DNA of 21,986 nucleotides. Source: Dehalococcoidia bacterium. Lineage in GTDB: Bacteria; Chloroflexota; Dehalococcoidia; UBA2979. The DNA is taken from NCBI GenBank assembly GCA_046328255.1, contig JAXLWY010000026.1, positions 1 to 21,986 on the forward strand, given 5' to 3'. The notes beneath the pieces were generated by a model. The model was given only the letters and a program-made list of their open reading frames with translations. It did not search any database and was not told where the DNA came from. Below, piece after piece: positions 421 to 19,483 of this stretch (position 1 is its first letter; each line of letters begins with the position of its first letter). The position numbers and the translations under genes were made by a program.

Positions 421-574
421 CGGCCCTCGGATCGGCGTGCACGGCGCGACGAACCCGTTCGCCGCCACACCAAATCTACCAAACGCACTCGATATCGTGA
501 GATTCGAGAGTAGCAGTCAGGGCGTCGCCGACAAGGCCGGCGCGACCCGTTCCGGCTTCGCGGCGGGGTGGCGC

Positions 575-1789
575 TCAGCGCATCGCGTCGCGGAGGTCCG
601 GGCGCGCCGCGCGACGAGGCCCGCGGCTGACCGAGGCCGCGCCGAAGCGCTCGCGCAGGCCGTCGATCGCGTGATCGAGCAGTTCCCGCTGCCGCACGGG
701 CGCGTCCTCGAATGCCAGTTGCACCACATCCTCGACCAGGTTCGTGGCCCCGAGGCCGATGAGGCGCACGGGGTGCGTCCCGATCTGCGCCGTCAACGCC
801 TCGAGCAGCGTGATCCCCTCGCGGTGCAGTTCCTGCGTCGACTGGAGCGGCAGGTCCACCGTCCGCGAGCGAACGAACGTGGTGAAGTCCGCCCAGCGCA
901 GCTTCAGCGTGACCGTGCGCGCGCGCTTGCCCGAGCCACGGAGGTCGCCGCCGATGCTGTCCGCATGCACGAGGAGGACGCGGCGCAGTTCGGCGGCGTC
1001 CTCGACGTCGCGCCCGAACGTCACTTCGCGCGACACCGACTTCGCCTCGCGCGGCCCACCGACCACCGGCGTGGGGTCGATGCCGCGCGCGCGGTCGTGG
1101 AGGTAGGCGCCCACCTTGCCGAAGCGGTCCTCGAGCCACCGCGGATCGGCGGCGGCCGCCTCACCGATCGACGTGATGCCCGCGGCTGCCAGGCGTTCGG
1201 CGAGCTTCGGACCAACGAGCGGGAGCTCGCGGATGGGGAACGGTGCGAGGAATGCGGCGTCCTCGCCCGGCGGCACCTCGATCAAGCCGTCCGGCTTCGC
1301 ACGGTCCGAGCCCGTCTTCGCCGTGATCCGCGAGCTCGCGATACAGACGGAGACCGCCAGACCGAGGTCGGACCGCACCCGTGCGCGCAGGCGGCGCGCG
1401 ACTTCGAATGCCCCACCCTGCGGACCGAGGCCGGTCAGGTCCGCATATGCCTCGTCGACGCCGACAGACTCGACGATTGGTGCAGCCTCGCGCAAACGCT
1501 CGTGGAACGCGCGCGACAGCGCGACGTAGCGATCGAAGTGTGGCGAAACCACGATCGCCTGCGGGCAGAGTCGGAGTGCGACCGCCATCGGCATCGCGGA
1601 ACGGCAGCCGAATGCGCGCGACTCGTACGAGGCGCTCGCGACTACGCCTCGAGGGCCGTTGAACCCGACGAGGACGGGCTTGCCGATCAGCGCCGCGTCG
1701 TCCAGTCGCTCGACCGCGACGAAGAAAGTGTCGAGGTCGAAGTGCGCGATACGCCTCGGCAGGCGCGGTCCGGGGTCGAGGCGAGGCAT
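575..1789 (-). CDS. dinB: DNA polymerase IV (Y-family translesion polymerase DinB)
   Basis: 404-aa ORF with Y-family hallmarks: IAHFDLDTFFVAVE, SYESRAFG, VDEAYADLTG, little-finger region. Full length and uninterrupted. Confidence 0.9.
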   Translation of the reverse strand: MPRLDPGPRLPRRIAHFDLDTFFVAVERLDDAALIGKPVLVGFNGPRGVVASASYESRAFGCRSAMPMAVALRLCPQAIVVSPHFDRYVALSRAFHERLREAAPIVESVGVDEAYADLTGLGPQGGAFEVARRLRARVRSDLGLAVSVCIASSRITAKTGSDRAKPDGLIEVPPGEDAAFLAPFPIRELPLVGPKLAERLAAAGITSIGEAAAADPRWLEDRFGKVGAYLHDRARGIDPTPVVGGPREAKSVSREVTFGRDVEDAAELRRVLLVHADSIGGDLRGSGKRARTVTLKLRWADFTTFVRSRTVDLPLQSTQELHREGITLLEALTAQIGTHPVRLIGLGATNLVEDVVQLAFEDAPVRQRELLDHAIDGLRERFGAASVSRGPRRAARPDLRDAMR

Positions 1790-1800
1790 GTGATGATGGT

Positions 1801-1814
1801 AGAACGCGCGTTCT
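1801..1814. promoter_or_regulatory. Putative LexA (SOS) box AGAACgcgcGTTCT, 12 nt upstream of the dinB start
   Basis: Palindrome GAAC-N4-GTTC (core of the actinobacterial LexA box TCGAAC-N4-GTTCGA). Read on the dinB strand: TTGACGccataAGAACgcgcGTTCTaccatcatcacATG, i.e. box between a TTGACG -35-like hexamer (complement of 1820-1825) and a -10-like element. Only GAAC-N4-GTTC instance found in the window. Confidence 0.6.
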
Positions 1815-1821
1815 TATGGCG

Positions 1822-2397
1822 TCAATGCGGAGGAGGCGTGCCTTTCGCATCCCCGAGTTGGCGCAACACGCGAGCCGGCACCCCACCGACGACCGTGTCG
1901 GGTGGAACATCGCGCGTGACGACGGCGCCGGCGGCGACGACCGCGCCGTCTCCCACCGCCACGCCCGGAAGGATCACGGCTCGCGAGGCAATCCAGGCGC
2001 CGTTGCCGATCGTGACCGGCGCCGGCAGGAGTTCGCCCGCCCGTCGAGCGGAGAAGCGAGTGTCGTGTCCCGAGGTCGTGATCAGGACGCCGTGCCCCAG
2101 CGCGACTCGATGACCCACGGTAATCCGGTCGGTCGCATCGAAGACACAGTCCGCGTTGATGAACGAATCCGAGCCGATGACCAGTCTGCGCGAGGCGTCA
2201 CGCCCGCCGAGTAGCCGAAAGGGCGCGAACACGAGTCCTCGGGGCCCGATCTGGAGGCCCACCATGCGCAGGCACTCGGCGCGCAGCCTCGGTGCAACGC
2301 CGACGGGTATCGGCGCGGTGAGCAGCTGCGCGAGGAGGTAGCGAACGTCGACGTTCGCGAGCAGGTCCCCGAGCACTCGCGACACACCGAGTGGCAC
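1822..2397 (-). CDS. Hexapeptide-repeat (LbH) O-acetyltransferase, maltose/galactoside acetyltransferase-like
   Basis: 191-aa ORF with a left-handed beta-helix repeat signature: IGNGAWIASRAVILPGVAVGDGAVVAAGAVVTRDVPPDTVVGGVPARVL. Its stop is 33 nt upstream of the dinB start. Confidence 0.8.
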   Translation of the reverse strand: MPLGVSRVLGDLLANVDVRYLLAQLLTAPIPVGVAPRLRAECLRMVGLQIGPRGLVFAPFRLLGGRDASRRLVIGSDSFINADCVFDATDRITVGHRVALGHGVLITTSGHDTRFSARRAGELLPAPVTIGNGAWIASRAVILPGVAVGDGAVVAAGAVVTRDVPPDTVVGGVPARVLRQLGDAKGTPPPH

Positions 2398-2421: not shown

Positions 2422-2853
2422 TCAATTCTGGGAATCGCCGCGGTTCGACGCACTCGCGGCGTACCCGTTCGCGCTCGCCCCGTTCGAGCGCATCGGCGCG
2501 GGTTGTGCGGCGTCTGATGGCGGCTCCGAAGGCGCTTCATCGTCGCGCTCACGAGGGTGGAGCGACTCGATCTCGGCCTGCGTGACGCCCTCGACTGCCT
2601 CCTCGGCGGTCTGGCCGCGGAGCATGCGCCGGGCGATGGCCACGCTGGCGAGCACGACGAGCGCGCCGGCGACGGCGGCGCCGCCCGCGACGTAGCGATG
2701 CCGTCCGACGAGCTCAGGGAATCGACTCAGCGCGCGGTGCGCGAGCCGGATCGACTGCTCCGCCGCCGCGTCCACCTGCTCGCCGCCGCCGCGCTGTGCT
2801 GGTTCCTGGGGTGTCGATGCCGCGCGCATCCTGCGGCGGGGACGCATCACCAT
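2422..2853 (-). CDS. Small conserved membrane protein (one TM helix), immediately downstream of ribH
   Basis: ~143-aa reading MVMRPRRRMRAAS...RYVAGGAAVAGALVVLASVAIARRMLRGQTAEEAVEGVTQAEIESL...; a hydrophobic helix flanked by charged segments. This is the distal part of track ORF 2422..3333, whose upstream part is out-of-frame ribH. A small membrane-protein gene after ribH is a common actinobacterial arrangement. Confidence 0.5.
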   Translation of the reverse strand: MVMRPRRRMRAASTPQEPAQRGGGEQVDAAAEQSIRLAHRALSRFPELVGRHRYVAGGAAVAGALVVLASVAIARRMLRGQTAEEAVEGVTQAEIESLHPRERDDEAPSEPPSDAAQPAPMRSNGASANGYAASASNRGDSQN

Positions 2854-2878: not shown

Positions 2879-3335
2879 CTAACCCTCGAGTGCGGGCAGG
2901 AGGGTGGCCATCTCGATCGCCGCGAGCATTGCCTCGCGGCCCTTGTTGCCCACGGCGCCGCCCGCGCGTGCCTGGGCCTGCTCGACAGTGTCCGAGGTAC
3001 GACGCCAAACGCGACTGGCATCCCGTAATCGGCGGCCACATCGGCGATGCCATGTACCGCCCGCCACGAAATCGAAGCGCGGTGCCCGCCTCGGATCACC
3101 GCGCCGACGCAGGCGATGGCGTCGTACCGACCGGTATCGGCGAGCGCGCGCTGCGAGCGGCAGCTCGTACGCACCCGGCACCCACGCCACATCGAGGTTG
3201 TGATCGGACACGCCGTGCTCGCCGCCGTAGTCGAGGGCGCCTGCAGCAGGCGCTCGGTGATCAACTCGTTGAACCGCGACGACGACGGCGACGTGCAGCC
3301 CGCTGGCGTCGAGCGAGCCTCGAAGGTGCGCACTA
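2879..3335 (-). pseudogene. ribH: 6,7-dimethyl-8-ribityllumazine synthase (ribH), reading frame broken by ~6 single-base frameshifts
   Basis: RibH segments in alternating frames: GSLDASGLHVAVVV | RFNELITERLLQ | GALDYGGEHGVSDHNLDVAWVPGAYELPLAARA | RYDAIACVGAVIRGG | RFDFVAGG | AVHGIADVAADYGMPVAFGVV | SDTVEQAQARAGGAVGNKGREAMLAAIEMATLLPALEG*. Example junction: gtacc where gtaacc is expected (homopolymer -1). Confidence 0.75.
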
Positions 3336-4624
3336 GCCCAGCCCCGGTCCCCGTGATCGGCCCATCTTCTCGCGCTTGGTCTGGAGGTAGCGGAGGTTGT
3401 GCGGGTTGGGCTCCACCTCGAGCGGCACACGCTCGACGATCTCGAGGCCGTAGCCATCGAGGCCGGCGCCGCGCAGCTCGCCGTGCGTCTGGATCTCGCG
3501 GACCTTGAGCGGGTTGTTGTCACGAGCCGCATCCGCGTGATGCCGAGGTCGACGAGGATCTGCGCGCCGATGCTGTAGTCGCGGTTCTCGGCAGGCAGGC
3601 CCAGCGCTGTTCGCCTCGACGGTGTCGAGGCCCTGCTCGTCCTGCAGGCGGTAGGCGCGATCTTGTTGTGCAGGCCGATGCCCCGGCCTTCCTGGTCCAT
3701 GTAGACGATCACGCCGCGTCCTCGTCGGCGATGCGCTGCATCGCGGCCTCGAGCTGCTCGCCGCAATCGCAGCGGAGTGAGCCGAACACATCGCCGGTGA
3801 GGCACTGATCGTGGACGCGCACCAGCGTGGGCTCACTGCTCGCGACGTCGCCGAGGACGAGGGGCCACGTGCTCCTTGGAGTCGATGAGCGCGGTAGCTG
3901 ACGGCGCGAGCGTTCCAAATCGCGTCGGTGCAGCGGCTCTTCGACGCGCTCGACGAGGCGCTCGTGCGCGAGGCGGTACGCGATGATGTCGGCGACAGTC
4001 ACGATCCCCATCTTGAACTTGCGGGCGAACCGCTGAGCTGTGGCATGCGCGCCATCGAGCTGTCCGTGACCATGATCTCGCAGGGACCACTGCCGCCGGC
4101 TGGAGTCCTGCGAGCTTGCAGAGGTCGACAGACGCCTCGGTCTGACCGGCGCGCACCAGCACGCCTCCCCGAGCGGGCGCGCAACGGGAAGATGTGGCCC
4201 GGCCGGGTGAGGTCGCGCGCGGAACTCGAGGGGTCCCTGAGCACCGGATGGTCCGCGCGCGATCGGCGGCCGAGATGCCGGTCGTCACGCCTCGCGCGCC
4301 TCGACGCTCACGGTGAAGGCTGTCCCGAGAGGCGCGCCGTTGTGCGCGGCCATGGGGTGCAGGTCGAGTCGGTCGCACCACGTCCCATCAGCACGCAGAT
4401 GAGGCCGCGCGCCTCGGTGGCCATCAGGTTGACCTCACCTCCGCGGTGCAGAACTGGGCGGGGATGCAGATGTCGTCATTCTCGCGGTCCTCGTCGTCGA
4501 CGATGATGAGCGGCTGCCCCGCCTTGAAGGCCGCGATGGCATCCTCGACGCTCATGAGGGCGGGGGCGCGAGTCTTCGTACCGGTGGGCTTGCGCTGGTT
4601 CTGGCTCGGTTGCTTCGTCGTCAT
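3336..4624 (-). pseudogene. ribBA: Bifunctional DHBP synthase / GTP cyclohydrolase II (ribBA), multiple frameshifts
   Basis: RibB motifs (SVEDAIAAFKAGQPLIIVDDEDREN; [15 protein letters not shown]; [13 protein letters not shown]; [27 protein letters not shown]; MARMPQL) and RibA motifs ([35 protein letters not shown]; [19 protein letters not shown]; RAYRLQDEQGLDTVEAN; LGLPAENRDYSIGAQILVDLGI; GLDGYGLEIVERVPLEVEPNPHNLRYLQTKREKMG) spread over five track ORFs in different frames. ATG at 4624 overlaps the ribE TGA (ATGA). Confidence 0.8.
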
Positions 4625-5231
4625 GAATCCCCGCCGGGCGGGCGGGTCACCGGGCCGCGCGCGCCCTCGAGCATCTGCTCCACGTATCGAGCGAGATGTC
4701 GGTTTCGAGGTTGATGCTATCACCGGGGTGACGGGGCGTGAGGTTCGTAGTTCCTTGCGTGTACTGGACCAGCGAGACGCCGGAAAGACTCCGCGTCCTT
4801 TGCCATCACAGTCAGCGATGCACCGTCGACGCAGACCGGGCCCTTCATCGCGATATAGCCCTGGCATCGGGAGCGACGGTAGCGCGCGATGAGCGCGTCG
4901 CCTTCTGGTGTGAGGCTGTCGAGGGTGCACGTGGACCTCGAACCACGCCTGCACGATGTGGCCTGACAGGCGGTCATCCGGGCGCAGGACCGCTCGAGGT
5001 TCACCGCGGAACCGGCCTGAGAGTTGACGAGGTTCGAGCGGCGGAACGTCTCGGGCATCACATCGAACGTCATCGAGCGCGCGTCCATGGCGCGAATCGT
5101 GAGGTCGACGCCGTTGACCGCGATCGAGTCCCCGAGCTTCGACCCTCGATGATCGCGTCGCAGTCGATCACGAGCACGCCGCCATCACGGACACTGACCG
5201 TGCCGACCTCTTCGATGATGCCCGTGAACAA
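4621..5231 (-). pseudogene. ribE: Riboflavin synthase alpha subunit (ribE/ribC), frameshifted
   Basis: LFTGIIEEVGTV (likely TTG start at 5231), MTFDVMPETFRRSNLVNSQAGSAVNLERS, IAMKGPVCVDGASLTV, GDSINLETDI and C-terminus RYVEQMLEGARGPVTRPPGGDS* found in at least three frames. Confidence 0.75.
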
Positions 5232-5248
5232 CGCTTCCGCCCTCGCAA

Positions 5249-6376
5249 CTACTTCCGGCCAGACCGGCACCCTCGATCGGCACATCGTCGCCGAGGCGCG
5301 TGACCTCGACGTCCGCAGCCGCAGCGCCTGCGCCATCCGTCGACGCCCTGCCTGGCAACGGCCGAGGGCGCTCGCCGCACCGATGAGATGATCGGCGCGA
5401 TCACGGCCTGCACCCGGTCCACCATGCGACGGCCTGTGGCGCGACCCAGGACGACGACGCTCACCGCCCTCGAAGAGGACGGTGAGGGCCCCGCGGGCCC
5501 CGAGGGCTGCCAGCAGCGCACGGAGGTCGACGTGGCTGTCGTCGGACGGGAGCACGAGCACCTCGGCGCCCGCGCCGACATCGATGGCGCTACGCCCTCG
5601 GGTGACGCCTCGGTGGTGGCGATGAGCGGGAAAGCGCCGGGTTGCAGTACGCGCAAGGGCGGCGGGCGTCCGCCCCCGCGCATCGAGGACGACGCGCAGC
5701 GGCTGGTGCACCGCGCCGGCCTCGCCCTCGGGACGCGCGGTCAGCTGCGGATCGTCGATCACGACCAGCCCCGACCCGACCACGATCGCGTCGAGGCGCG
5801 GACGGTTGCGGTGCGCCCACGCGAGCGTCTGCGGGCCCGAGACCCAGCGCGAGTCGCCCGAGGACGCCGCGATCCGCCCATCGAGCGAGGCGGCGAACTT
5901 GACGACACGGCGGGCAGGCCCGTTCGTCGGTGCCCGAGGTACCCCTCGAGGATGCGCGCGCCTCTCCGCCGCACCCCCTCGCCCACCTCGACGCCCACGC
6001 CGGCCGCCTCGACCAGCGCGGCCGCGGCCGTTCACCTCGGGGTTGGGTCGTCGAGGGAGTAGTGGGATCGCCGCGACGCCCGCCTCGATGAGGGCGTCCG
6101 TGCAGGGGGCGTGCGCCCCCGGTGGGCGTGCGGCTCGAGGGTCACGTACGCGGTCGCTCCGCGCGCGCGGGTTCCCGCCTCGCGCAGCGCCATCACCTCG
6201 GCGTGCGGGCCGCCGGGCGGCTGCGTGTGGCCCGCGCCGACGACCGCGCCATCGAGGACGATCACGGCGCCCACGGCGGGGTTGGGGGATGACCAGCCGA
6301 GGGCGCGCTCCGCCTCCGCCAGCGCAAGGCGCATGAACTCGCCGGGCGGGCGCGCGGAGCCGGGCAAGCCGGCCAT
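5249..6376 (-). pseudogene. ribD: Riboflavin biosynthesis deaminase/reductase (ribD), frameshifted from ~6100 downward
   Basis: Intact N-terminal deaminase domain: [91 protein letters not shown]. Then shifts: PCTDALIEAGV / HYSLDDPTP / AALVEAAGVGVEVGEGV / VVKFAASLDGRIAASSGDSRWVSGPQTLAWAHRNRPRLDAIVVGSGLVVIDDPQLTAR / PLRVVLD / LVDRVQAVIAPII. First shift is ccccc where cccccc is needed. ATG at 6376 overlaps the dcd stop (ATGA). Confidence 0.75.
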
Positions 6377-6958
6377 CAGTCTGCGGGTCGGCGGTAGTCG
6401 ACCCACCCGCGACTGGCCGTGGGGCCCTGCTGCCCCTGGTACTTCGAGTGCAGCCCCGGCGACCCGTAGGGCCGCTCCGCCGCCGAGGACAGCTCGTGAA
6501 TCGAGAGCTGGCCGATCTTCATGCCGTAGTAGAGCTTGATCGGCAGGTTCGCGACGTTCGAGAGCTCCATCGTGAGGTGCCCGTCCCATCCCGGGTCGAC
6601 GTATCCCGCCGTCGCGTGCACGAGCAGGCCCAGCCGGCCAAGGGACGACTTCCCCTCGACGCGCGCAACGAGATCGTCGGGGATGACGACGCGTTCCAGC
6701 GTCGACCCGAGCACGAACTCGCCCGGGTGCAGCACGAACGCCTCGTCGTCGGCGACCACCTCGAGCTCCGTGAGGTCATCGACGGGCGCGCGCACGTCGA
6801 TGAACGACTCGCGGTGATTGCGGAACACGCGGAACTCGCGGTCGAGGCGGATGTCGATCGAGGCGGGCTGGAGCGCATCGTCGCGCATGGGATCCACGAC
6901 CAGGCGCCCCGATTCGAGGTACGCGCGGATGTCTCGATCGCTGAGGACCACGAGGCAC
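6376..6958 (-). CDS. dcd: dCTP deaminase
   Basis: [21 protein letters not shown]...ASIDIRLD...[76 protein letters not shown]...[21 protein letters not shown]. Intact. Probable GTG start near 6958; the track M at 7038 is likely an upstream over-extension. Confidence 0.85.
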
Positions 6959-8651: not shown

Positions 8652-9257
8652 CTAGGAAGTAAGACGCCCAGCGGGGGACGTAAGTTCCCCGGTGGCGAGC
8701 AGGATGTCGCGCAGCCGTCCACGCGCCCGGCTGATTCGCGACTTCACTGTGCCGAGGGGCAGTCCCGCGGCGATCGACACCTCCTCGTAGGACAGGCCGT
8801 GCACGTCGGTCAGCACGACGACGAGACGCCACTCCTCGGGGAGCTGGAGGAGCGCGCGCTCGAGGGCGGCGCGCAGCTCAGCGTTGAGGGCGGCCGCCTC
8901 GGGGCTGGGTCCGGGATCCGCAGGGTCGGGCGCGCTCGCCTCACCCTCGAGCGCCGGCGCATCGAGGGAGCGCGTGGGACGCCGCCGCTGTCGTCGCAGC
9001 TCGTCCCGACAGGCGTTGGCGGTGATGCTGAGGAGCCACGCGCGGAAGTGCTCCCCTCGGAAGCTCCGAATGGCGCGAAACGCCCGCACGAAGGCCTCCT
9101 GCGTGGCGTCCTCGGCGGCGGCACGCTGTCCCATGAAGCGGTAGGCGAGGCTGTACACCTGGTCCTGGTGCGCAAGAACCAGGCGGTTGAACGACTCCAC
9201 GTCGCCCGCCTGGGCGCTTCGAACAAGCTGCTCTAAGTCCACGCGGGCGGGCTCCAC
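8652..9257 (-). CDS. ECF (sigma-70 family, group 4) RNA polymerase sigma factor
   Basis: 201-aa with region 2 (FNRLVLAHQDQVYSLAYRFMGQRAAAEDATQEAFVRAFRAIRSFRGEHFRAWLLSITANACRDELRR) and region 4 (LPEEWRLVVVLTDVHGLSYEEVSIAAGLPLGTVKSRISRARGRLRD). GTG start. Intact. Confidence 0.85.
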   Translation of the reverse strand: MEPARVDLEQLVRSAQAGDVESFNRLVLAHQDQVYSLAYRFMGQRAAAEDATQEAFVRAFRAIRSFRGEHFRAWLLSITANACRDELRRQRRRPTRSLDAPALEGEASAPDPADPGPSPEAAALNAELRAALERALLQLPEEWRLVVVLTDVHGLSYEEVSIAAGLPLGTVKSRISRARGRLRDILLATGELTSPAGRLTS

Positions 9258-9380
9258 CTGGTACGCCGCGGGCGCGCCTCCGTGCTGCGCTGTCAGCCGC
9301 CCCGAGGCCGAGGGTGGCGCATCGAGCGGGATCCGCGGGGCACGGAGCTCCTCGATGCTCCCCGAGGTGTGGAGGCGCGA

Positions 9381-10212
9381 ATGGGACTGGCGACCGGCCG
9401 AGCCTGCTTCACGCGGCCGAGCGCGGCGGCTATGCGGTGCCCGGATTCAACGTCTCGAACCTCGAGCTGGCGCTCGGCGTGCTCGATGCCGCGCGTCTTT
9501 GCGCGCGCCGGTGCTGCTGCAGTTCAACACGAGCAACATCACGCACTTCGGCGGCATCGAAGTGGTTGCGGCCACGGCCCGCACGCTCGCAGCCTTGCCG
9601 AGACGCCGGTCGCGGTCCACCTCGATCACGGGACCTCGCTGCCGCAGGTTCGAGCGGCGATTCGCAGCGGGTTCACGTCGTTAATGTTCGATGCGATCGA
9701 CGTTCTCGCTGGAGCGCAACACGCGCGAGACGCCCGCGCGGGCGCGGCGGTCTCCTCGAGGCGGGGCTCGCCCTCGAGGCCGAGCTCGGCCACGTCGGCG
9801 GGCGCGAGCCGGGCGTGGCGACCTCGGAAGCGGTGTCACCGAGCCCGAGGACGCCCGCCGGTTCGTCGAGGCAACGCGCGTCGACGCGCTGGCGGTCTCG
9901 GTGGGAACGGCGCACGGCATGGCGGGCGACGTGAACCTCGATCTCGTCGCCGCGCTCCGAGAGGCCACACGCGGCCTGCCGCTGGTCCTGCACGGCGGAT
10001 CCGGCGTGCGATCGAGTCAACTCCGCGAGGCCGTGCGCGCCGGCATTCGCAAGGTCAACATCTCGACGGAGATCCACGCCGCGTTCGCTGCTTCGCTCGC
10101 ACAGGGCGTGGATGCCGACCCTCGACCGGCGTTGAATCGAGCGCGTGCCGCTGTTGCCGATGCTGCGTCGTCACGCATCGAGTTGCTGGGCGCCACGCGT
10201 CGAGCCTGGTGA
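9381..10212 (+). pseudogene. fba: Class II aldolase (fructose-/tagatose-bisphosphate aldolase, FbaA/GatY family), ≥5 frameshifts
   Basis: Pieces in three frames: MGLATG | SLLHAAERGGYAVPGFNVSNLELALGVLDAAR | APVLLQFNTSNITHFGGIEVVAATARTLAA | TPVAVHLDHGTSLPQVRAAIRSGFTSLMFDAIDVLAGA | LEAELGHVGGRE | EDARRFVEATRVDALAVSVGTAHGMAGDVNLDLVAALREATRGLPLVLHGGSGVRSSQLREAVRAGIRKVNISTEIHAAFAASLAQ...SRIELLGA*. First shift within ~7 codons of the ATG. Confidence 0.7.
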
Positions 10213-10290
10213 TACATAATCAGTTCACTTATCCGCGCGCTTCTTCGGGAAGCCGCGCGTGCGAACTGATCTCGGGGCTATACTCGGGCA

Positions 10291-11065
10291 ATGCGCGAGC
10301 CGATCAGCCAGGATCTCCCTCGGGTGCAGACGCCCGTCCTTGTCCAGACGCCGGTGGTCCTGACCGCCACGCATCAGGGCCTGATCGACTTCGACCCGTG
10401 GGAGGCCGAGTGGCAGCAGCGGCCGTGGGCTGCGGCGCCCGCGAGGCGCACCCCGCTTTCGATGATCCCTTACCAGTGGCTGGCGGAGGTGTTGAGGTCG
10501 GGCGCTCGCGCTTCTTCATGTTCATCGCCGTCCAGCAGGCCTCCAGAACTTCATCGTCGATGGCGGCTCGATGGAGCCGAACTTTCATTAATGGCGAGTT
10601 TGCTCATCGTCAACAAGGTCGCGTTCCGCACGCTGAGCGTCCTGTTGCTCCCGTTCGTCGACAAGACGTGGAGGCCATTCGGGCTGCCAAAGCCAGGCGA
10701 CGTGGTGGTCTTCGAGTTCCCCCAGGACCCCTCGCGCGACTTCATCAAGCGCGTGATCGCGGTGCCCGGCCAGCAGGTCGAGGTGCGAGAGGGCCGTGTG
10801 TACATCGACGGCCAGGTCACCGACGAGCCCTACCTCGCCGAGCCGCCGCATTACCAGTACGGCCCGATCGGTGCCGGAGGGCAACCTGTTCGTCCTCGGT
10901 GACAACCGGAACAACTCATACGACTCGCATTCATGGGGCATGCTCCCCGAGCACTTCCTCATCGGACGCGCCGAGTTCCGCTACTGGCCGCTGTCGGCCG
11001 CGGGTCGGATCACCAGCCCCGCCGAGGCCTCCTCGACTTCCGGAGGCAGTGCCACATCGCAGTAG
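10291..11065 (+). pseudogene. lepB: Signal peptidase I (LepB), several frameshifts in the N-terminal/catalytic region
   Basis: Box B FIVDGGSMEPNFH (frame 2, runs into TAA), then LLIVNKVAFRTLSV...GLPKPGDVVVFEFPQDPSRDFIKRVIAVPGQQVEVREGRVYIDGQVTDEPYLAEPP (frame 1), then VPEGNLFVLGDNRNNSYDSHSWGMLPEHFLIGRAEFRYWPL* (another frame). TATACT hexamer 6 nt upstream of the ATG suggests a leaderless transcript. The N-terminal ~70 codons are not confidently resolved. Confidence 0.65.
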
Positions 11066-11741: not shown

Positions 11742-13823
11742 ATGCCGTTCGACCTGCCTCAGATCGCGTGGTTGACGACGGCGCTGACCATCGGCATCCC
11801 TGTCCTCCTGCTCATCGTCCTCATCGGGCGGCCGCTCGTGAACATCGGCGGCGAGGAGGTGGGTCTCGTCGAGCGGCGCTACTTCGGAGCCGGACTTCCG
11901 GAGGGCCGCGTCATCGCGATGCCGGGCCAGGTCGGCATCCAGGCGCGCGTGCTGCGCCCGGGCCTGCACGTCCTCTTCCCGTACCTCTATCGAGTGCAGA
12001 AGCGCCCGATGATCGTCATCGGCGAGAACGAGGTGGGCATCGTCGAGTCGATCGACGGGAACCCGCTCGCACCGGGACACATCTTCGCGCGGCGCATCGG
12101 CAGCCACGACCTCTTCCAGGACGGCGAGGCCTTCCTGCGCGCCGGTGGCCAGAAGGGTCCCCAGGTCGACGTACTCCCGCCGGGCCAGTATCGAATCAAC
12201 ACCTACCTGTTTCGCATTCGCGTCGAACCGGCCCTCATCGTGCCGGCGAACCAGGTGGGTGTGGTCAGCGCTCGAGACGGTGAGCAGATCGAGGCGGGGC
12301 GCCTGCTCGCGTCGCAGACCGCCGGGCACAACTCGTTCCAGGACGGCGAGGCGTTCCTCGCAAACGAGGGCCAGCGCGGCCCCCAGATCGACGTGATCCT
12401 GCCCGGCCGCTATCGCCTCAACACCGACCTGTTCAGCGTGCAGGTCGCGCCCGCCACAGTCGTCGGGGCCGCGATGGTCGGGCAGGTCACCGCGAAGGAC
12501 GGCGAACCACTCCCCTCGGGTGAGCTCGTGGCCGCGAGCGTCACGGGACACACCGACTTCCAGAATGGCTCGGCGTTCCTCGCGGCCGGCGGTCAGCGGG
12601 GCCCGCAACTCGACCTCCTGCGGCCGGGTACGTACTACATCAACCCCTTGATGTTCGACGTCACCCTCGACGACGTCGCGGTCGTGCAGCGCGGCCAGGT
12701 GGCGGTCCTCGTATCGAACGTCGGGCCCGAGCCGGACCGGCCTCAGGCAGAGCGCCTCGCCGAGGGCCTCGAGCGCTACGTGGTGCCGCAGGGCTTCCGC
12801 GGAATCCAGTCGGAGGTCGCAGGGCCGGGTGTGTACTACCTCAACCGCTGGGCCTACCTCGCCTACGTAATTCCGACGACGAACCTCACGATCGACTGGG
12901 CCGAGGAAACCACCATCATCACCGAGCAGTCGGGGCCGCGCACCCAGACCGACGAGGAGCCCGAGCCTCGCCGCCTGCAGCTCTTCAACCCGCTCTCCGT
13001 GATCAGCCGTGACGGCTTCGAGATGAAGGTCTCGGTGAAGGTGATCATGCGCGTGCATCCCGAGCAGGCGCCGCTGATGGTGGCGAAGATCGGCTCCGTC
13101 CAGAACCTGATCGACCACGTCATCCACCCGATGATCGACTCGTCCTTCCGCAACCAGGCGTCGTCCACCGAGGCGATGTCATTCATGCAGGACCGCGCCG
13201 TCGAGCAGGAGAAGGCCGAGGTGCGCGCGCGCGAGGAGATGGAGAAGTACCACGTCGAGTGCGTGCGGGTGCTGATCTCGCAGATCATCCTGCCCGAGGA
13301 GTTGATGCACATCCACACGCGGCGCGTGATCGCGATGCAGCAGCAGGAGATGTTCATCGAGCAGCAGAAGTCGGAGCAGCAGCGCATCGCCACCGAGAAC
13401 ACGCGCGCACAGGCCGACCAGCAGATCAACCTCGTCTCGGCGCAGATTGGCGTGCAGATCGCCGAGCAGAACCGCCAGACCACGGTCATCGGCGCCGAGG
13501 GCCGCGCGCGCGCCATCGAGCTGGAGGGCAACGCTGAGGGCTCGAAGATCCTCGCGATCGGCAACGCCACCGCCGAGGCCTACGACCGCCAGCAGAACGC
13601 GATCGGCCAGGCGAACCTGTTCGGCATCGAGATCGCGAAGTCGATCGCGGGGGCCGGGCTGAAGATCACCCCGGACATCGTCGTCGGTGGGGACGGCGGC
13701 GGCGGGATGTTCGCGGCGTTCCTCGCGCAGATGCTCGCGGGCGGACGGGTGCCGGCGCTGGTGGGCGGCGGCAACGGTGGCAGTCCCGCGGCGGCACCGG
13801 ACTCCGAGATGCCCTCGAACTAG
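11742..13823 (+). CDS. Flotillin-like SPFH/band-7 family membrane protein with expanded N-terminal repeats
   Basis: 693-aa uninterrupted ORF. N-terminal TM (IAWLTTALTIGIPVLLLIVLIG), then 3-4 tandem ~60-aa repeats (FQDGEAFLRAGGQKGPQVDVLPPGQYRINTYLF / FQDGEAFLANEGQRGPQIDVILPGRYRLNTDLF / FQNGSAFLAAGGQRGPQLDLLRPGTYYINPLMF). Then SPFH core and a flotillin-type heptad region (EQQKSEQQRIATENTRAQADQQINLVSAQIGVQIAEQNRQ...AIELEGNAEGSKILAIGNATAEAY) and a Gly-rich tail. Confidence 0.85.
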   Translation: MPFDLPQIAWLTTALTIGIPVLLLIVLIGRPLVNIGGEEVGLVERRYFGAGLPEGRVIAMPGQVGIQARVLRPGLHVLFPYLYRVQKRPMIVIGENEVGIVESIDGNPLAPGHIFARRIGSHDLFQDGEAFLRAGGQKGPQVDVLPPGQYRINTYLFRIRVEPALIVPANQVGVVSARDGEQIEAGRLLASQTAGHNSFQDGEAFLANEGQRGPQIDVILPGRYRLNTDLFSVQVAPATVVGAAMVGQVTAKDGEPLPSGELVAASVTGHTDFQNGSAFLAAGGQRGPQLDLLRPGTYYINPLMFDVTLDDVAVVQRGQVAVLVSNVGPEPDRPQAERLAEGLERYVVPQGFRGIQSEVAGPGVYYLNRWAYLAYVIPTTNLTIDWAEETTIITEQSGPRTQTDEEPEPRRLQLFNPLSVISRDGFEMKVSVKVIMRVHPEQAPLMVAKIGSVQNLIDHVIHPMIDSSFRNQASSTEAMSFMQDRAVEQEKAEVRAREEMEKYHVECVRVLISQIILPEELMHIHTRRVIAMQQQEMFIEQQKSEQQRIATENTRAQADQQINLVSAQIGVQIAEQNRQTTVIGAEGRARAIELEGNAEGSKILAIGNATAEAYDRQQNAIGQANLFGIEIAKSIAGAGLKITPDIVVGGDGGGGMFAAFLAQMLAGGRVPALVGGGNGGSPAAAPDSEMPSN

Positions 13824-13947: not shown

Positions 13948-15192
13948 CTACGCCTCCGCGTGCGCCTCGGCGAAGGCCTTTGGATTCTTGAACACCTGGA
14001 GCGCGGTGCCAACCAGCTCACCCACCTGGCGGTACTGGCGCAACGCGATCAGGACGGCAAGCACGATGTAGAGGACGCCGATGCCGACGCGGAGCTCCTC
14101 GATGAGAACTGCGATGCCGGGCGATAGCTCACCGAATACCGGCGCGACGAACTGGATGGCGAACAGGACGAACAGCAGCACCGCCTCACGGCCGGACAGG
14201 CTGAGGCTGGCAAGGACTGCGACCGCGAAGATCGACTGCGCCGCCGTCAGGAACATCTCCTCGCGCGCCAGCGTTTCGAGGGGAAGCGCCGCCGTGCTGC
14301 GATCTGAGACTGCGTAGGCAATCGGCAGGCCGCCCACGAGCAGCGTCCACTGGTTCACCTTCGAAGAGATGAGCGCCCCCATCGCGACTGCCGCGCGACC
14401 TCGCCACGCGAGGATGAACGTGACCACGAACTCGGGCGCCTCCGAGGCGACAGGCGCGAGCCACTGCACGAGCAGGAACTCATCGATGCCGATCTCGGTT
14501 CCCACGTGCACGAGGCCGTGGGCGAACGGCTCGGCCGAGGCAAGGATCGATCCCGCCGAGTAGACAAAGAGCGCGCCCACCACGCTGCGTCGCTGCAGGC
14601 GCGGCAGCGCGCCGATCATCCTCGCGGGGCCGACGAGCTCGGGGTCCTCTGCGGGCGCCCTCGCGAGGACCGAGACGTAGGCGACGAAGATCACGCCGAG
14701 GATGGCGGCGTCGAGGAGCGACACGGACGCCTTGAACGGGATCACAAACGAGTAGAGCGTCGCCAGCGTCAGCGCCACCACCTCGAGCGAGTAGCTGCGT
14801 TCGAGGATCAGCGTGCCGACGCGTGTGCGGAAGTAGAGGATGGCGACGATCAGCGGCCATGCCGCGCCGATGAGCAGTCGATTGCCGCCGGTCATGTTCG
14901 CGATCGCGAATTTTGCCTGCTCAGGATCGCCCGGCGCGTGCCAGGCGAAGGTCATGCTCACGGCGTACTCGGGAAGGACGGCGATCAGCGCGATGAACGC
15001 GACCGCCACGCCCTGCGCGACGTCCACCTCGGACGCCTCGGCGCTCCACGCGAGGAGGAACGCGGCGGCGACGATCGAGAGTCCGTAGAGCGCGGTGTCG
15101 GAGGCCGTGCCGATGTGGTAGCCGCCCATGCGCAGCATCAGTCCGGGAATGGCACAGAGCAGTGCGACGACGACTATCGTCCGGTTCCCCAA
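13948..15192 (-). CDS. Cation/Ca2+ exchanger (CaCA) family antiporter
   Basis: Polytopic membrane protein with two alpha-repeat-like segments (LAWSAEASEVDVAQGVAVAF and QWLAPVASEAPEFVVTFILAWRGRAAVAMGALISSKVNQWTLLVGG). The track ORF extends to 15369, but the first ~60 codons look non-coding (Arg/Ser-rich). Probable start near 15192 (TTG) or an internal Met; start is uncertain. Confidence 0.7.
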   Translation of the reverse strand: MGNRTIVVVALLCAIPGLMLRMGGYHIGTASDTALYGLSIVAAAFLLAWSAEASEVDVAQGVAVAFIALIAVLPEYAVSMTFAWHAPGDPEQAKFAIANMTGGNRLLIGAAWPLIVAILYFRTRVGTLILERSYSLEVVALTLATLYSFVIPFKASVSLLDAAILGVIFVAYVSVLARAPAEDPELVGPARMIGALPRLQRRSVVGALFVYSAGSILASAEPFAHGLVHVGTEIGIDEFLLVQWLAPVASEAPEFVVTFILAWRGRAAVAMGALISSKVNQWTLLVGGLPIAYAVSDRSTAALPLETLAREEMFLTAAQSIFAVAVLASLSLSGREAVLLFVLFAIQFVAPVFGELSPGIAVLIEELRVGIGVLYIVLAVLIALRQYRQVGELVGTALQVFKNPKAFAEAHAEA

Positions 15193-15332
15193 CGCATCCT
15201 CCGATGATCCGTTCTCCCGGCTCCGGTCATCATCGTGCCTCGGGCAGCACCGCGCCACGAGGCGTACCTCGCCAGATGGCCGCGCGTAGACTCTCGTCAC
15301 CCCACGGGCCAAACACGCATTGAGGGAGAGGG

Positions 15333-15848
15333 ATGATCCGGGACGTCGAGCTACGGGACGCTGGGCCAAAGGGCAGAGGCGTGTTCGTGCGACGGAGTTT
15401 TCGGCGCGGCGAGTTCATCTTCCGTCGCAGGCAGGGTCCGGCGCTCACCGCTTCCGAGATCAGTCTGTTGTCGGACGATGAGCGAAGGCACCTGTGCGAG
15501 CTCGACTGGAACCACAGCGCAGTGCTCTTCCCGCCGGGCTGCTACCTCAACCATTCGTGCGAACCGAACGCGATGAGAAGCGGCGTGAAGGTGTTCGCAT
15601 GGCGGGATGTGGAGGCAGGCGAGGAGATCACCATCGACTACCGGCTCAACGCCTTCGACGACACCGAGCGGTGGCCGTGCCTGTGCGGGCACTGCGCCGG
15701 CACGGTGACGGGGAGCTTCTTCGCGTTATCCATCGCGCGTGCCGACGCCTACCTGCCGTACGCGCCGCGCTTCATCCGGCTCGAGTACCAGAGGCGACGT
15801 GTGCTCCTCGAAGCATCTCGCTCACGGGCCGCCATCGATGTAGCGTGA
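15333..15848 (+). CDS. SET-domain protein (putative protein-lysine methyltransferase) with Cys-rich post-SET motif
   Basis: GRGVFVRRSFRRGEFI..., NHSCEPNA, EAGEEITIDY, and post-SET WPCLCGHCAG. GGGAGAGGG RBS directly upstream of the ATG. Confidence 0.8.
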   Translation: MIRDVELRDAGPKGRGVFVRRSFRRGEFIFRRRQGPALTASEISLLSDDERRHLCELDWNHSAVLFPPGCYLNHSCEPNAMRSGVKVFAWRDVEAGEEITIDYRLNAFDDTERWPCLCGHCAGTVTGSFFALSIARADAYLPYAPRFIRLEYQRRRVLLEASRSRAAIDVA

Positions 15849-15852
15849 AGCC

Positions 15853-16467
15853 ATGTGGCTGCAGAGCACGTCGCGGTACCCGCTCGACGAGGTGCGCACG
15901 CTCGTCGAGTTCGCGATGGCCGAGATCGACCATGGCGAGCTCGCGGTCCGGGTCAAGAACACCCGCGACATCTATCGAGGCCGCGCGTACGACGGCCTGC
16001 CCTCGATCTCGGCCGCGCAACGCCAGCCGGGCATGACGCGCCTCGTCACGCTTGCGATCGGCGCGCCCTCGAACTTCCCCACGACGAACGAGGTGCGCAC
16101 GGCGCGCTGGCGTCGAGTCCGCGAGGGCGAGTCCCTCGATGGCGTGCGAGCCTCCGACCTCCGACGCACCCGTCCGAACGCCCGCTCCGGCGCCCGAGCG
16201 CGCACCGGCGCGCCCGCCGACCCGCGAGGTCAGCTCGAGCGGCGCGAGGTGCGCACGCACGGCTACGGCGGAGTTACGTCGCCGGTCGTCGAGATCGCCG
16301 ACTGGCAGGAGGCGCTGGTGGCGGTCGCCTCCCACGAGGCGCGCCACATCTGGCAATACCAGCACGACGCGCCTCGGAGCGAGGTGGATGCGGAGCGTTA
16401 CTCGGCGGCGCGCCTTGCACTCTGGCGCGAATGGCGCGCATGGCGCGAAGGCCCCATCGCGATCTGA
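15853..16467 (+). CDS. Hypothetical protein with HExxH (HEARHIWQYQH) zincin-like motif, co-transcribed with the SET gene
   Basis: Starts 5 nt after the SET stop. High GC3 across the whole ORF, including the Arg-rich central linker. C-terminal GYGGVTSPVVEIADWQEALVAVASHEARHIWQYQHD resembles HExxH-x(n)-H metallopeptidase-like families (DUF45/SprT/DUF4157-like), but no family can be assigned by eye. W-R-E/A triplet repeat at the C-terminus (LALWREWRAWRE). Confidence 0.5.
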   Translation: MWLQSTSRYPLDEVRTLVEFAMAEIDHGELAVRVKNTRDIYRGRAYDGLPSISAAQRQPGMTRLVTLAIGAPSNFPTTNEVRTARWRRVREGESLDGVRASDLRRTRPNARSGARARTGAPADPRGQLERREVRTHGYGGVTSPVVEIADWQEALVAVASHEARHIWQYQHDAPRSEVDAERYSAARLALWREWRAWREGPIAI

Positions 16468-16528
16468 CCGCGGACGTTGCGGCGCCTCTCGCCGTCCGGG
16501 ACACTGAATCGCGCACACGGAGGGCCAC

Positions 16529-16798
16529 ATGTGGAAGCGACGTCGACGTCGTGCGCTGGGCAGGCGGAAGCGATTCCCGCTCGCGATCATGGGCCTGATC
16601 CAGTTCGCGCTGCTGGTCGCCGCGCAGATCGATCTCCTGCGTCGTCCAGACGCCGCTGTGCGCGGGCCGAAGTGGGCCTGGCGCGCGGCCACGCTCGTGA
16701 ATTTCGTCGGTCCTCTCGCGTATTTCGCCCTCGGCCGTCGCGAGGTTGCACCCGCCTCATCCGCACCGGCGGTACCGAGCGCGTTCGAGCCGGCCTAG
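16529..16798 (+). CDS. Small membrane protein with PLD-nuclease N-terminal-like (PLDc_N) domain
   Basis: MWKRRRRRALGRRKRFPLAIMGLIQFALLVAAQIDLLRRP...PKWAWRAATLVNFVGPLAYFALGRRE. Two hydrophobic helices around a conserved D/R...KW...PxxGP...GRR pattern typical of PLDc_N mini-proteins. GGAGGG RBS 6 nt upstream. Its 3' end overlaps the convergent amidase stop by 4 nt. Confidence 0.6.
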   Translation: MWKRRRRRALGRRKRFPLAIMGLIQFALLVAAQIDLLRRPDAAVRGPKWAWRAATLVNFVGPLAYFALGRREVAPASSAPAVPSAFEPA

Positions 16799-18099
16799 CC
16801 GCCTGTCGCCGCGAGCACTGACTCGACCGCGCTCGCGACCGCGAGCAGCGCCTCGTCGGCGCCATGCCGCCCGGCGAGCTGCAGCCCGACGGGCAACCCC
16901 CCGATATCGCCGGCCGGCACGCTGACGACGGGCAACCCCGCGTGCGTCCACGGTGTGTTCATCACCGGGCTGCCGGTCGAGGCTTGCCCGAGCGGAGCGG
17001 CGCCCGGCGCCGACGGACTGGCCCAGGCGTCGAGCCGGTGGAGCTCCATGAGTCCCTCGAGCGCGTTGCGCAGGGCAAGCGTTCCGGCGACGCCCGCGGA
17101 GCGCTGCTCCGAGGTCACCGCGCTGCCTTCCTCGAAGAGCTGGGCTGAGCGAGGTCGGTAGAGCGGGCCGTACTCGGCGAACAGCGCGCGGTGCTGATCG
17201 GCGAACTCGGCGGCGGTCAGCCAGCCGTGGCGCGTGCTGATCGCCGCGATGTCCTCGAGGGCCGGCACGCGCCGCACCTCGATGCCCGCAGCCACCAGTG
17301 TGTCGAGAGTGCGCTCGAAGGCGCCCAACGCTGCCGACTCGGCGCGTGCGAGGTAGGGGCCTTCCGGTACGCCAAGCACGACACGGGGCGCCGACGAGGC
17401 TTCGCGCCAGTCCTCGATGAGCACGCGCGCGGCCTCGATCAGACCGGCGACATCGCGGGTGAACCAGCCTACGGTGTCGACGCTCGGCGAGTAGTACACG
17501 ACGCCGCTCGAGGGCACGCGTCCCAGCGACGGCTTCAGCGCGGCGACGCCGCAGTAGGCGGCGGGCCGGATCACGGAACCCACCGTCTGCGTGCCGAGGG
17601 CGAGCGGAGCCAGCCCCGCGGCAACCGCGGCCGCCGACCCGCTGCTCGACCCGCCCGGGGTATGGCCGGGTGCTCTCGGGTTCCGCGTCGCCGCGGGCTC
17701 GAAGTAGGCGAACTCGGTGGTGGCGGACTTGCCGAGGATGAGCGCGCCGGCCTCGCGGAGGCGCGTCACGACCCACGCCTCGGCGCCCGCGAAGACTTCG
17801 GTGGGCAACGCCGAGCCCGCGCGCGTCGGGAAGCCGTCGACGCGAATCACGTCCTTCACCGCGACGGGCACGCCGAACAGGGGCGGACGCACCGACGGAG
17901 TGAATCGAGCCTCGAGGGCGCGCGCCTCCGCGCGCAGACGCTCACGGCGGCCCAGCTCCGGGAGCACGGCGAGCACGTGTGGGTTGAGCTCCTCGAGACG
18001 GTCACGAAGGCAGCCTCGGTAAGTGCCGTTACGTCGAGTTCGCCGCCTCGAGCCGCTGCGAGGCCGCGAGTTCAAGCCCAGTGCCTCGAGTTGGCTCAT
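16795..18099 (-). CDS. Amidase-signature (AS) family amidase; N-terminus carries two compensating frameshifts (~18030-18075)
   Basis: GGSSSGSAAAVAAG signature, VAVKDVIRVDGFPTRAGS, ILGKSATTEFAYF. ATG at 18099 gives MSQLEALGL, but the expected consensus (…TELAAARGGELDVTALTEAA…) is only found in another frame before returning to LRDRLEELNPHV. Body of the gene is intact. Confidence 0.8.
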   Translation of the reverse strand: MSQLEALGLNSRPRSGSRRRTRRNGTYRGCLRDRLEELNPHVLAVLPELGRRERLRAEARALEARFTPSVRPPLFGVPVAVKDVIRVDGFPTRAGSALPTEVFAGAEAWVVTRLREAGALILGKSATTEFAYFEPAATRNPRAPGHTPGGSSSGSAAAVAAGLAPLALGTQTVGSVIRPAAYCGVAALKPSLGRVPSSGVVYYSPSVDTVGWFTRDVAGLIEAARVLIEDWREASSAPRVVLGVPEGPYLARAESAALGAFERTLDTLVAAGIEVRRVPALEDIAAISTRHGWLTAAEFADQHRALFAEYGPLYRPRSAQLFEEGSAVTSEQRSAGVAGTLALRNALEGLMELHRLDAWASPSAPGAAPLGQASTGSPVMNTPWTHAGLPVVSVPAGDIGGLPVGLQLAGRHGADEALLAVASAVESVLAATGG

Positions 18100-18169
18100 C
18101 GCCCTCCGACTTCGCCCCGTGAAGCTGCAGGAAATCCAGCCCGGCGCCCGACCATCGGAGTGTCTCTGG

Positions 18170-18448
18170 ATGGCGAAAGAGGCCCCGCGCATGTTCAGCA
18201 GTTGTGATGCGTGCAAGCGCCCAGATCCTTCCGACCTCACCCAGATGCAAGGTCGAGCGCGGCAACTGGTGGCCACCAAGCTCGGACTCTCGCTGCGGCC
18301 GCGTTCTCGAGACCTGTTCGTCCTCTGCCACGACTGTGGCGAGCTCGCGATTGCGCGCGTCCGCCCGGTCGTCGCCGAGGGTGAACGGCCAGCGCCGCGC
18401 GGGCTGATCGTCGACCACTTCGCCTCGATTTCCCGTCCGTGCGTGTGA
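18170..18448 (+). CDS. Small zinc-ribbon protein (CxxC...CxxC), hypothetical
   Basis: MAKEAPRMFSSCDACKRPD...(34 aa)...CHDCGELAIARVRPVV.... Divergent from the amidase with a ~70-bp intergenic spacer. GC3 is lower than in confident genes, and it lies in a frameshift-rich block, so its length and existence are uncertain. Confidence 0.3.
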   Translation: MAKEAPRMFSSCDACKRPDPSDLTQMQGRARQLVATKLGLSLRPRSRDLFVLCHDCGELAIARVRPVVAEGERPAPRGLIVDHFASISRPCV

Positions 18449-18478
18449 CACTGGCGAGGCGTCCCCTACGCTGGGATC

Positions 18479-19336: not shown

Positions 19337-19483
19337 GATCCCGGACAGGCTCGCACACCCCACAACGCCGCGGGGCGCGCTGGTACGCCTCGTAATGGCC
19401 GTCACCGTCGCGCGGCTGTAGCGAGGAGTGCAGCGTGCAGATCAGTCCCAGCGTCCGCGCGATCCGGGTTCCGACGACAAGCC

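Follow-up and report, generated by a model that had tools for sequence, protein, structure and literature searches.

Dense frameshifts in the riboflavin operon of a Dehalococcoidia contig are very probably errors of the deposited assembly

Results

Gene content of the riboflavin locus

The window, that is, the whole stretch of 21,986 nucleotides analysed here, is the complete NCBI contig of a Dehalococcoidia MAG, and the indel pattern described below is present in the public NCBI record, where the contig carries the proteins MFN8639819-MFN8639835 (locus tags U0360_10290 to U0360_10380). The riboflavin genes were found on the minus strand, running from 6376 to 2879 in the canonical order ribD-ribE-ribBA-ribH. 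At the junction with the upstream gene, the stop codon of dcd and the ATG of ribD read TGATG with an overlap of 1 nt, not the ATGA that a previous sequence-only reading had given. No FMN riboswitch was detected in the rib region, the Rfam scan being without matches, and a tRNA scan also gave no matches. The features, including three stretches of low accuracy (patches A, B, and C), are as follows.

2422-2853, minus strand: hypothetical membrane protein of 143 aa (MFN8639821.1), intact; downstream neighbour of ribH
2879-3333, minus strand: ribH (lumazine synthase), 4-7 frame changes; final ~117 nt clean
3333-4624, minus strand: ribBA (DHBP synthase / GTP cyclohydrolase II), 13-15 frame changes
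4650-5231, minus strand: ribE (riboflavin synthase, Lum_binding domain), 5-8 frame changes
5253-6376, minus strand: ribD (deaminase/reductase), 11-13 frame changes, from 6108 downward; first ~268 nt clean
5070-6035, minus strand: frame-chimeric ORF of 321 aa, MFN8639824.1, "RibD family protein" at NCBI; a product of the indels
6376-6951, minus strand: dcd (dCTP deaminase, MFN8639826.1), intact; upstream neighbour of ribD
2998-6108, no strand: noisy patch A, covering most of the rib operon, with ~43 frame changes, ~48 window-unique small indels, and excess substitutions
9247-10868, plus strand: noisy patch B, with 5-7 frame changes in class II fructose-bisphosphate aldolase (fba) and 5 in signal peptidase I (S26, lepB)
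18006-19900, no strand: noisy patch C, covering the 5' end of an amidase gene, a 294-aa gene, and the N-terminal half of an MBL-fold hydrolase

As deposited, the rib genes did not form continuous ORFs, and the raw ORFs contained domain fragments only; in MFN8639824.1, the RibD_C match was limited to residues 45-191. In the EPC...PPC zinc motif of the RibD deaminase, the first Cys is replaced by His (LEPH) in the window and in the closest relative, L081. This His was considered as a substitution error and rejected, because L081 has the same codon; it was regarded as a lineage trait and dropped as evidence.

Frame changes and substitutions in the riboflavin genes

Frame changes were counted by frameshift-aware protein-to-DNA alignment against intact orthologues. 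We used our own alignment of this kind because blastx against the six-frame ORFs of the relatives was too noisy in DNA of 70% GC. In the rib genes, 35 frame changes were observed against L001/L003 and 31 against L085. When a more sensitive penalty was used with the closest relatives, L081/L084, the number was 43 (ribD 13, ribE 8, ribBA 15, and ribH 7). No in-frame stop was found in the rib genes in any alignment. The earlier description of an operon full of small frameshifts at 2950-6100, lacking nonsense substitutions, was thus confirmed, with frame changes from 6108 to 2999, but its count of about 20 was too low. Nor is the entire operon affected, as had been stated: the first indel lies at 6104/6108 and the last at 2998/2999, and both edges of patch A are within ribD and ribH, away from the operon boundaries, with the two outer ends clean.

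In multi-sequence DNA alignments, 35 window-unique indels with a length not divisible by 3 were found at 3244-6108, compared with 0-2 in three intact relatives. The indels of patch A were nearly all of 1-2 nt, and deletions exceeded insertions by about 2.5:1; some are 2 nt long, contrary to the reading that every one is ±1. Window-unique substitutions were distributed over codon positions 1/2/3 as 43/40/60, compared with 14/6/75 for L081. This corresponds to about 2-3% extra substitutions, flat over the codon positions, with roughly one indel for every two of them. Hence, the damage is not one of "indels without substitutions", since excess substitutions occur at codon positions 1 and 2. Nor was the argument from homopolymers supported, as no enrichment in them was seen.

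The flanking genes were flawless, as had been noted. No frame change was found in dcd, dinB, and the hexapeptide acyltransferase, in the SIMPL, sigma-70, and phosphoribosyltransferase genes, or in the small membrane protein gene 3' of the rib operon. If 13.8 frame changes are expected per kb, the 2.3 kb that dcd, dinB, and the acyltransferase gene span together would be free of them with a probability of about 1e-14, by our own arithmetic. The distance between dinB and patch A is 1.1 kb.

Coding signal of the frame pieces

The frame pieces showed 82-90% amino-acid identity to the closest orthologues. Their dN/dS was 0.13-0.28, slightly above the 0.05-0.21 of intact pairs. When the frames were repaired, the translations contained the domains of all four riboflavin enzymes in canonical order: dCMP_cyt_deam_1 and RibD_C in RibD, Lum_binding in RibE, DHBP_synthase (1-191/191) and GTP_cyclohydro2 (1-165/165) in RibBA, where both Pfam models were matched end to end, and DMRL_synthase (2-138/139) in RibH. 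Judged from their sequences, the pieces, indels aside, still look like selected genes. Comparison with related genomes, which had been suggested as a check, showed that the rib genes are intact and identically arranged in all relatives examined (L001, L002, L003, L081, L084, L085, and L089), at 74-83% DNA identity to the window.

Noisy patches elsewhere on the contig

Besides patch A, the 22-kb contig contains two further noisy patches in genes unrelated to rib. The fba and lepB genes of patch B are housekeeping genes and were intact in all relatives. The right edge of patch C, at about 19900, was inferred from the reading frames. The patch edges are sharp and lie inside ribD, ribH, lepB, and the amidase gene, and the affected genes are mutually unrelated. 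Low-accuracy sequence makes up about 30% of the contig, in three stretches of 1.6-3.1 kb each; the damage recurs on the contig independently of gene function and gene boundaries. Candidate frame changes at 15232-16043 were rejected, since a stop-to-stop ORF with out-of-frame sequence had been aligned; the Na/Ca exchanger ORF at this position is intact and has no indels against the Logan contig described below.

Independent assembly of the same population

The Logan contig SRR26348421_269499 (L088, from SRA run SRR26348421) is an independent assembly of the same population. Over the 3.5 kb at 14501-18005, the window differed from L088 by 15 SNPs and 0 indels, the SNPs being clustered at 15728-15740, 17008-17020, and 17323-17352. 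In the 1.8 kb at 18006-19823, we found 50 substitutions and 51 indel events of 1-5 nt. Relative to L088, the window had 35 deletion events and 16 insertion events, of which 32 and all 16, respectively, were of 1-2 nt, and 55 nt were deleted vs 19 nt inserted. About 6-7% of the bases of patch C differed, the substitutions were mostly transitions, and 16 of the 21 single-base deletions were outside homopolymers. Over this patch, L088 has intact ORFs of 435, 73, and 294 aa. A predominance of 1-2 nt indels, a bias to deletions, and accompanying substitutions are typical of noisy reads, and this spectrum was observed in patches C and A. A second Logan contig, L086, was 100% identical to the window at 518-1941.

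The errors were absent from the independent assembly at patch C; for the rib patch, no sequence of the same population was found. Protein searches with the repaired RibBA, the RibD C-terminal piece, and RibH plus RibE gave best identities of 87%, 68%, and 83%, respectively, none indicating a same-population copy. In a metagenome scan, a 23-mer from the 5' end of ribD matched only an unrelated contig by chance, and neither dcd nor a 693-aa flotillin-like ORF had an exact-sequence match in the contig index. L089-L091, from the 90% clusters of dcd, were considered as the same population and rejected, because their DNA identity of 74-79% indicates different species. Literature on SRR26348421 yielded nothing relevant.

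Discussion

The frameshifts are very probably errors of the deposited assembly and not mutations of the organism. A technical artefact had already been the leading reading, and it is now supported on other grounds, namely patches B and C, the comparison with L088, and edges that ignore the genes. By analogy with patch C and from its internal signatures, patch A is almost certainly an artefact as well, and it presumably shares its cause with patch C. Since the errors are confined to sharp kb-scale patches and are not concentrated in homopolymers, they point to uncorrected read sequence in places and not to residual consensus error. Frameshifts and false pseudogenes caused by indel errors in long-read assemblies are well known (bioRxiv 10.1101/2021.08.23.457338; PMC12007338).

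We infer the sequencing technology and the assembly step behind the patches as follows. The contig would consist of accurate stretches alternating with three low-accuracy ones, each of the latter being either one error-prone long read left without correction or a consensus of such reads at very low depth. These may have entered by hybrid gap-filling, by scaffolding, or by a local failure of consensus or polishing, and one of them would happen to overlie most of ribD-ribE-ribBA-ribH. Because L088 is unbroken across patch C, a simple model of a short-read coverage gap would hold only if the MAG and L088 were derived from different libraries or samples, and the SNP difference of 0.4% between the window and L088 is compatible with this. 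On this view, the rib genes of the organism are most likely intact and functional.

Recent decay, which had been named as the alternative, stands as an alternative but is now very unlikely. It would mean that the operon has genuinely decayed to pseudogenes in a riboflavin auxotroph relying on uptake, the other patches being errors or further decay. All four rib genes are indeed disrupted, the window-unique substitutions are even over the codon positions as expected after loss of selection, many indels are likewise expected in a true pseudogene, the dN/dS of the pieces is slightly above that of intact pairs, and the protein searches gave no intact copy from the same population. However, the damage in the rib patch neither follows the genes nor has a natural mutation spectrum. 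It begins 268 nt into ribD and ends 117 nt before the ribH stop, and by our own arithmetic the probability of both ends being clean by chance, given the rate of frame changes in the patch, is about 0.005. The indels are almost all of 1-2 nt with no larger deletions, and their ratio of about 1:2 to the excess substitutions is far richer in indels than natural bacterial mutation spectra; nonsense codons are lacking. Furthermore, the same kind of patch occurs in fba, lepB, and three other genes of the contig, and patch C, the sole checkable patch, is missing from the independent assembly. The patches might also be real DNA of a subpopulation, in the form of kb-scale localized mutagenesis tracts rich in -1 frameshifts, for example from a Y-family polymerase acting repeatedly in error-prone repair, dinB being close to patch A. 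This we consider exceedingly unlikely; if it were true, riboflavin synthesis would be destroyed in a cell line living on community riboflavin.

An artefact of another kind, either a consensus over collapsed strains or damage by a polishing step, is unlikely. The clustered SNPs against the Logan contig in the clean part indicate that several strains coexist, which would favour collapse of strains. Such collapse should yield substitutions and indels of codon length, not 51 out-of-frame indels of 1-5 nt in 1.8 kb with a bias to deletions, and the SNP-rich clean region has 0 indels. Biological decoding, in which programmed ribosomal frameshifting, transcriptional slippage, or RNA editing would restore full-length proteins, fits the stop-free frame pieces and their high identity to functional Rib proteins. 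It is nevertheless hardly conceivable for about 43 sites in 3.1 kb that lie in unrelated contexts, shift both +1 and -1, and have no common motif or homopolymer enrichment; the orthologous sites are in frame in seven relatives, Rfam is empty, and one or a few conserved slippery shift sites were not seen. Taken together, these findings argue for uncorrected read sequence in the deposited contig.

The practical value of this analysis is the quality control of a public contig. Taken at face value, the contig would label a Dehalococcoidia MAG as a riboflavin auxotroph lacking aldolase and signal peptidase I, and this conclusion on its metabolism would be false. The rib patch is no basis for inferring riboflavin auxotrophy or loss of riboflavin synthesis. 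At least one frame-chimeric ORF, MFN8639824.1, is now in the protein databases, and the pseudogene counts, pathway completeness, and auxotrophy predictions of the MAG are untrustworthy until it is re-polished. The same caution may apply to the other contigs of the assembly, this analysis having covered one.

Comparison with known systems

The patches resemble the false pseudogenes of long-read and hybrid assemblies: conserved genes are broken up by closely spaced indels of 1-2 nt, the pieces still match the orthologues, the fragments are annotated as proteins or pseudogenes, and the errors are gone in an independent accurate assembly (here for patch C). They differ in that the errors are gathered in three kb-scale patches with sharp limits, the rest of the contig being accurate, and are not evenly spread. 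Tools for such indel-induced false pseudogenes include proovframe (bioRxiv 10.1101/2021.08.23.457338) and Kastor (PMC12007338).

In gene order and in the domain content of the repaired translations and the Dehalococcoidia relatives, the locus agrees with the canonical ribD-ribE-ribBA-ribH operon (ribGBAH in Bacillus). Unlike that operon, it has no detected FMN riboswitch, and ribD abuts dcd with the 1-nt overlap; compared with canonical RibD, the first Cys of the zinc motif is His in the window and L081. With the true operon decay of reduced-genome or auxotrophic bacteria, the locus shares multiple frame disruptions across the pathway and a relaxed codon-position bias of lineage-specific substitutions. 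It differs from such decay in that large deletions and nonsense codons are absent, the edges are not bound to genes, the same pattern appears in unrelated essential genes nearby, and patch C is contradicted by the independent assembly.

Results

Frame changes in the riboflavin operon

The riboflavin operon lies on the minus strand of the window, the GC content of which is 70%, and is arranged with its neighbours as follows.

6951-6376 (-), dcd, whose TGA overlaps the ribD ATG by one base (TGATG); MFN8639826.1
6376 to ~5253 (-), ribD
5231-4650 (-), ribE
4624-3336 (-), ribBA
3333-2879 (-), ribH
2853-2422 (-), membrane-like protein of 143 aa downstream of ribH; MFN8639821.1
2397-1822 (-), hexapeptide acyltransferase downstream of the operon; MFN8639820.1
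1789-575 (-), dinB downstream of the operon; MFN8639819.1

A dcd search of genome collections placed the DNA in a Dehalococcoidia (Chloroflexota) lineage and reached relatives in which the gene order was that of the window and the rib genes were intact. Closer relatives (contigs L081-L083, L084, and L085) were collected using the repaired RibBA as the query, and ribD, ribE, ribBA, and ribH were all intact in them, including L081, which showed 83% DNA identity to the window. The deaminase zinc motif of RibD (window 6130-6128, minus strand) reads LEPH in the window and LEPC in other relatives, His replacing the first Cys. A sequence error at this zinc ligand was considered and rejected, because L081 carries the same His; judged from the sequences, this residue is a lineage trait common to the window and L081.

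Frame changes were counted with a purpose-written protein-to-DNA local aligner permitting frame jumps of 1 or 2 nt. The rib genes contained 35 frame changes with the proteins of the relatives L001/L003 as the reference, 31 with L085, and 43 with the closest relatives and a lower frameshift penalty (ribD 13, ribE 8, ribBA 15, and ribH 7); the first and last were located at 6108 and 2999, respectively. The sequence-only reading had described an operon riddled with frameshifts, free of nonsense changes and flanked by intact genes. Indeed, no in-frame stop was found in the rib pieces in these alignments, and no frame change in dcd, dinB, or the acyltransferase, SIMPL, sigma-70, and phosphoribosyltransferase genes. 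Its estimate of about 20 frame changes was too low, the measured density being about twice that.

In a four-way DNA alignment, 35 window-unique indels with a length not a multiple of 3 were observed at 3244-6108, versus 0 in L081, 2 in L085, and 1 in L001. Approximately 48 window-unique indel events, nearly all of 1-2 nt, fell within 2998-6104, with a ratio of deletions to insertions of about 2.5:1. The damage starts 268 nt into ribD and stops 117 nt short of the ribH stop. The frame pieces showed 82-90% amino-acid identity to the closest relatives; furthermore, the repaired translations matched Pfam models nearly end to end, whereas the raw ORFs matched as fragments only.

Window-unique substitutions in the rib patch numbered 149-154, versus 94-99 for L081, and were distributed over codon positions 1/2/3 as 43/40/60 (14/6/75 in L081). 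These values imply, at the level of sequence comparison, roughly 2-3% added substitutions; the earlier description of indels without substitutions was thus wrong, and noise accounts equally well for the added substitutions. When the in-frame pieces were compared with L081, dN/dS, for which about 0.1 had been proposed as the mark of a functional gene, was 0.13-0.28, slightly above the 0.05-0.21 of intact pairs; hence, most of the sequence still bears the imprint of purifying selection.

Exact protein matches showed that the window makes up a whole 21,986-nt contig of an NCBI MAG ("Dehalococcoidia bacterium", locus tags U0360_....). A 321-aa ORF (5070-6035, minus strand) crosses several wrong frames, extends into the ribE start, and has been entered at NCBI under MFN8639824.1 with the name "RibD family protein". 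The frameshifts therefore stand in the public record. The accession numbering implies three further proteins annotated inside the patch (MFN8639822, MFN8639823, and MFN8639825).

Other noisy patches

In a plot of GC3 by frame, the phase also flipped often at two further places. All patch edges fall within genes, and the clean stretches between and around the patches are 3.0, 3.1, 7.1, and 2.1 kb.

2998-6108, patch A, most of ribD-ribE-ribBA-ribH
9247-10868, patch B, aldolase and signal peptidase I
18006 to ~19900, patch C

Frameshift-aware alignment gave 5-7 frame changes in the class II fructose-bisphosphate aldolase gene (9252-10206) and 5 in that of signal peptidase I (10281-11062). This region held 15 window-unique out-of-frame indels, versus 1-4 in the references, and its ORFs matched Pfam as fragments only; both genes are intact in L001, L003, L085, and L089. 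The gene at 18460-19335 showed 8 frame changes relative to L001, and the motifs of the following MBL-fold hydrolase were spread across three frames up to about 19900, from which the right edge of patch C is inferred. Since these two regions are also frameshifted, the contig holds three noisy patches, and the rib genes are not the only ones damaged.

At 11742-13823 (+), the window carries a single uninterrupted ORF of 693 aa in which flotillin/Band_7-like segments recur; the matching L085 DNA is called as three genes (212, 61, and 307 aa), and this region of about 2.5 kb is absent from L001. In L090 (JAKFZD010003196.1, GCA_021733565.1; 5251-7251), the phosphoribosyltransferase and the aldolase are called at 139 and 201 aa, versus 187 and 276 aa in other relatives, and local faults may be present in this assembly too.

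Patch C in an independent assembly

Two Logan contigs of SRR26348421 represent the same population as the window. L086 was 100% identical to window 518-1941, and L088 (5359 nt) aligned to 14501-19823. Up to 18005, L088 differed by 15 clustered SNPs and 0 indels; the clusters (15728-15740, 17008-17020, and 17323-17352), within otherwise identical indel-free sequence, resemble either microdiversity among strains of the population or tracts of recombination. At 18006-19823, the window lacked 55 nt in 35 deletion events and had 19 nt added in 16 insertion events; it also carried 50 substitutions, 35 of them transitions. Homopolymers were not enriched, since 16 of the 21 single-base deletions lay outside them against a background expectation of 60%. 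The L088 ORFs are intact across the patch (an amidase of 435 aa, ORFs of 73 and 294 aa, and the MBL gene start). Given the intact L088 and the dense differences from 18006, patch C reproduces, with errors at about 6-7% of bases, a sequence that is intact in the population. The indel sizes and deletion bias of the rib patch match those of patch C, and its level of added substitutions is similar.

Discussion

Error-prone sequence that was never corrected, its profile resembling that of long reads, would have been incorporated into the contig at three places, possibly by hybrid gap filling or scaffolding, or through a local failure of consensus or polishing; both the technology and the assembly step are inferred. 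We consider it highly likely that such sequence caused the rib frameshifts. Protein homology searches found no same-population sequence across the rib patch, so this conclusion is drawn from analogy and internal signatures. The sequence-only reading had favoured a technical artefact over recent decay, and the two further patches and the intact L088 support that preference.

True pseudogenes, which would leave the organism with decayed riboflavin genes, are very improbable: the operon is clean at both ends, the indels are confined to 1-2 nt with a very high ratio to substitutions, nonsense codons are absent, and housekeeping genes of the contig carry the same kind of damage. Programmed recoding is excluded, the sites being too many and too varied. 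Taken together, these findings favour error-prone sequence in the deposited assembly, and the organism itself very probably carries intact rib genes.

The probable artefact in the rib patch is of interest solely for the caution it imposes on the use of this MAG and of the protein fragments it put into databases. Indel errors in long-read assemblies are well documented as a cause of false frameshifts and pseudogenes (bioRxiv 10.1101/2021.08.23.457338; PMC12007338). The rib frameshifts are most probably an assembly artefact of this known kind, not a real biological feature.
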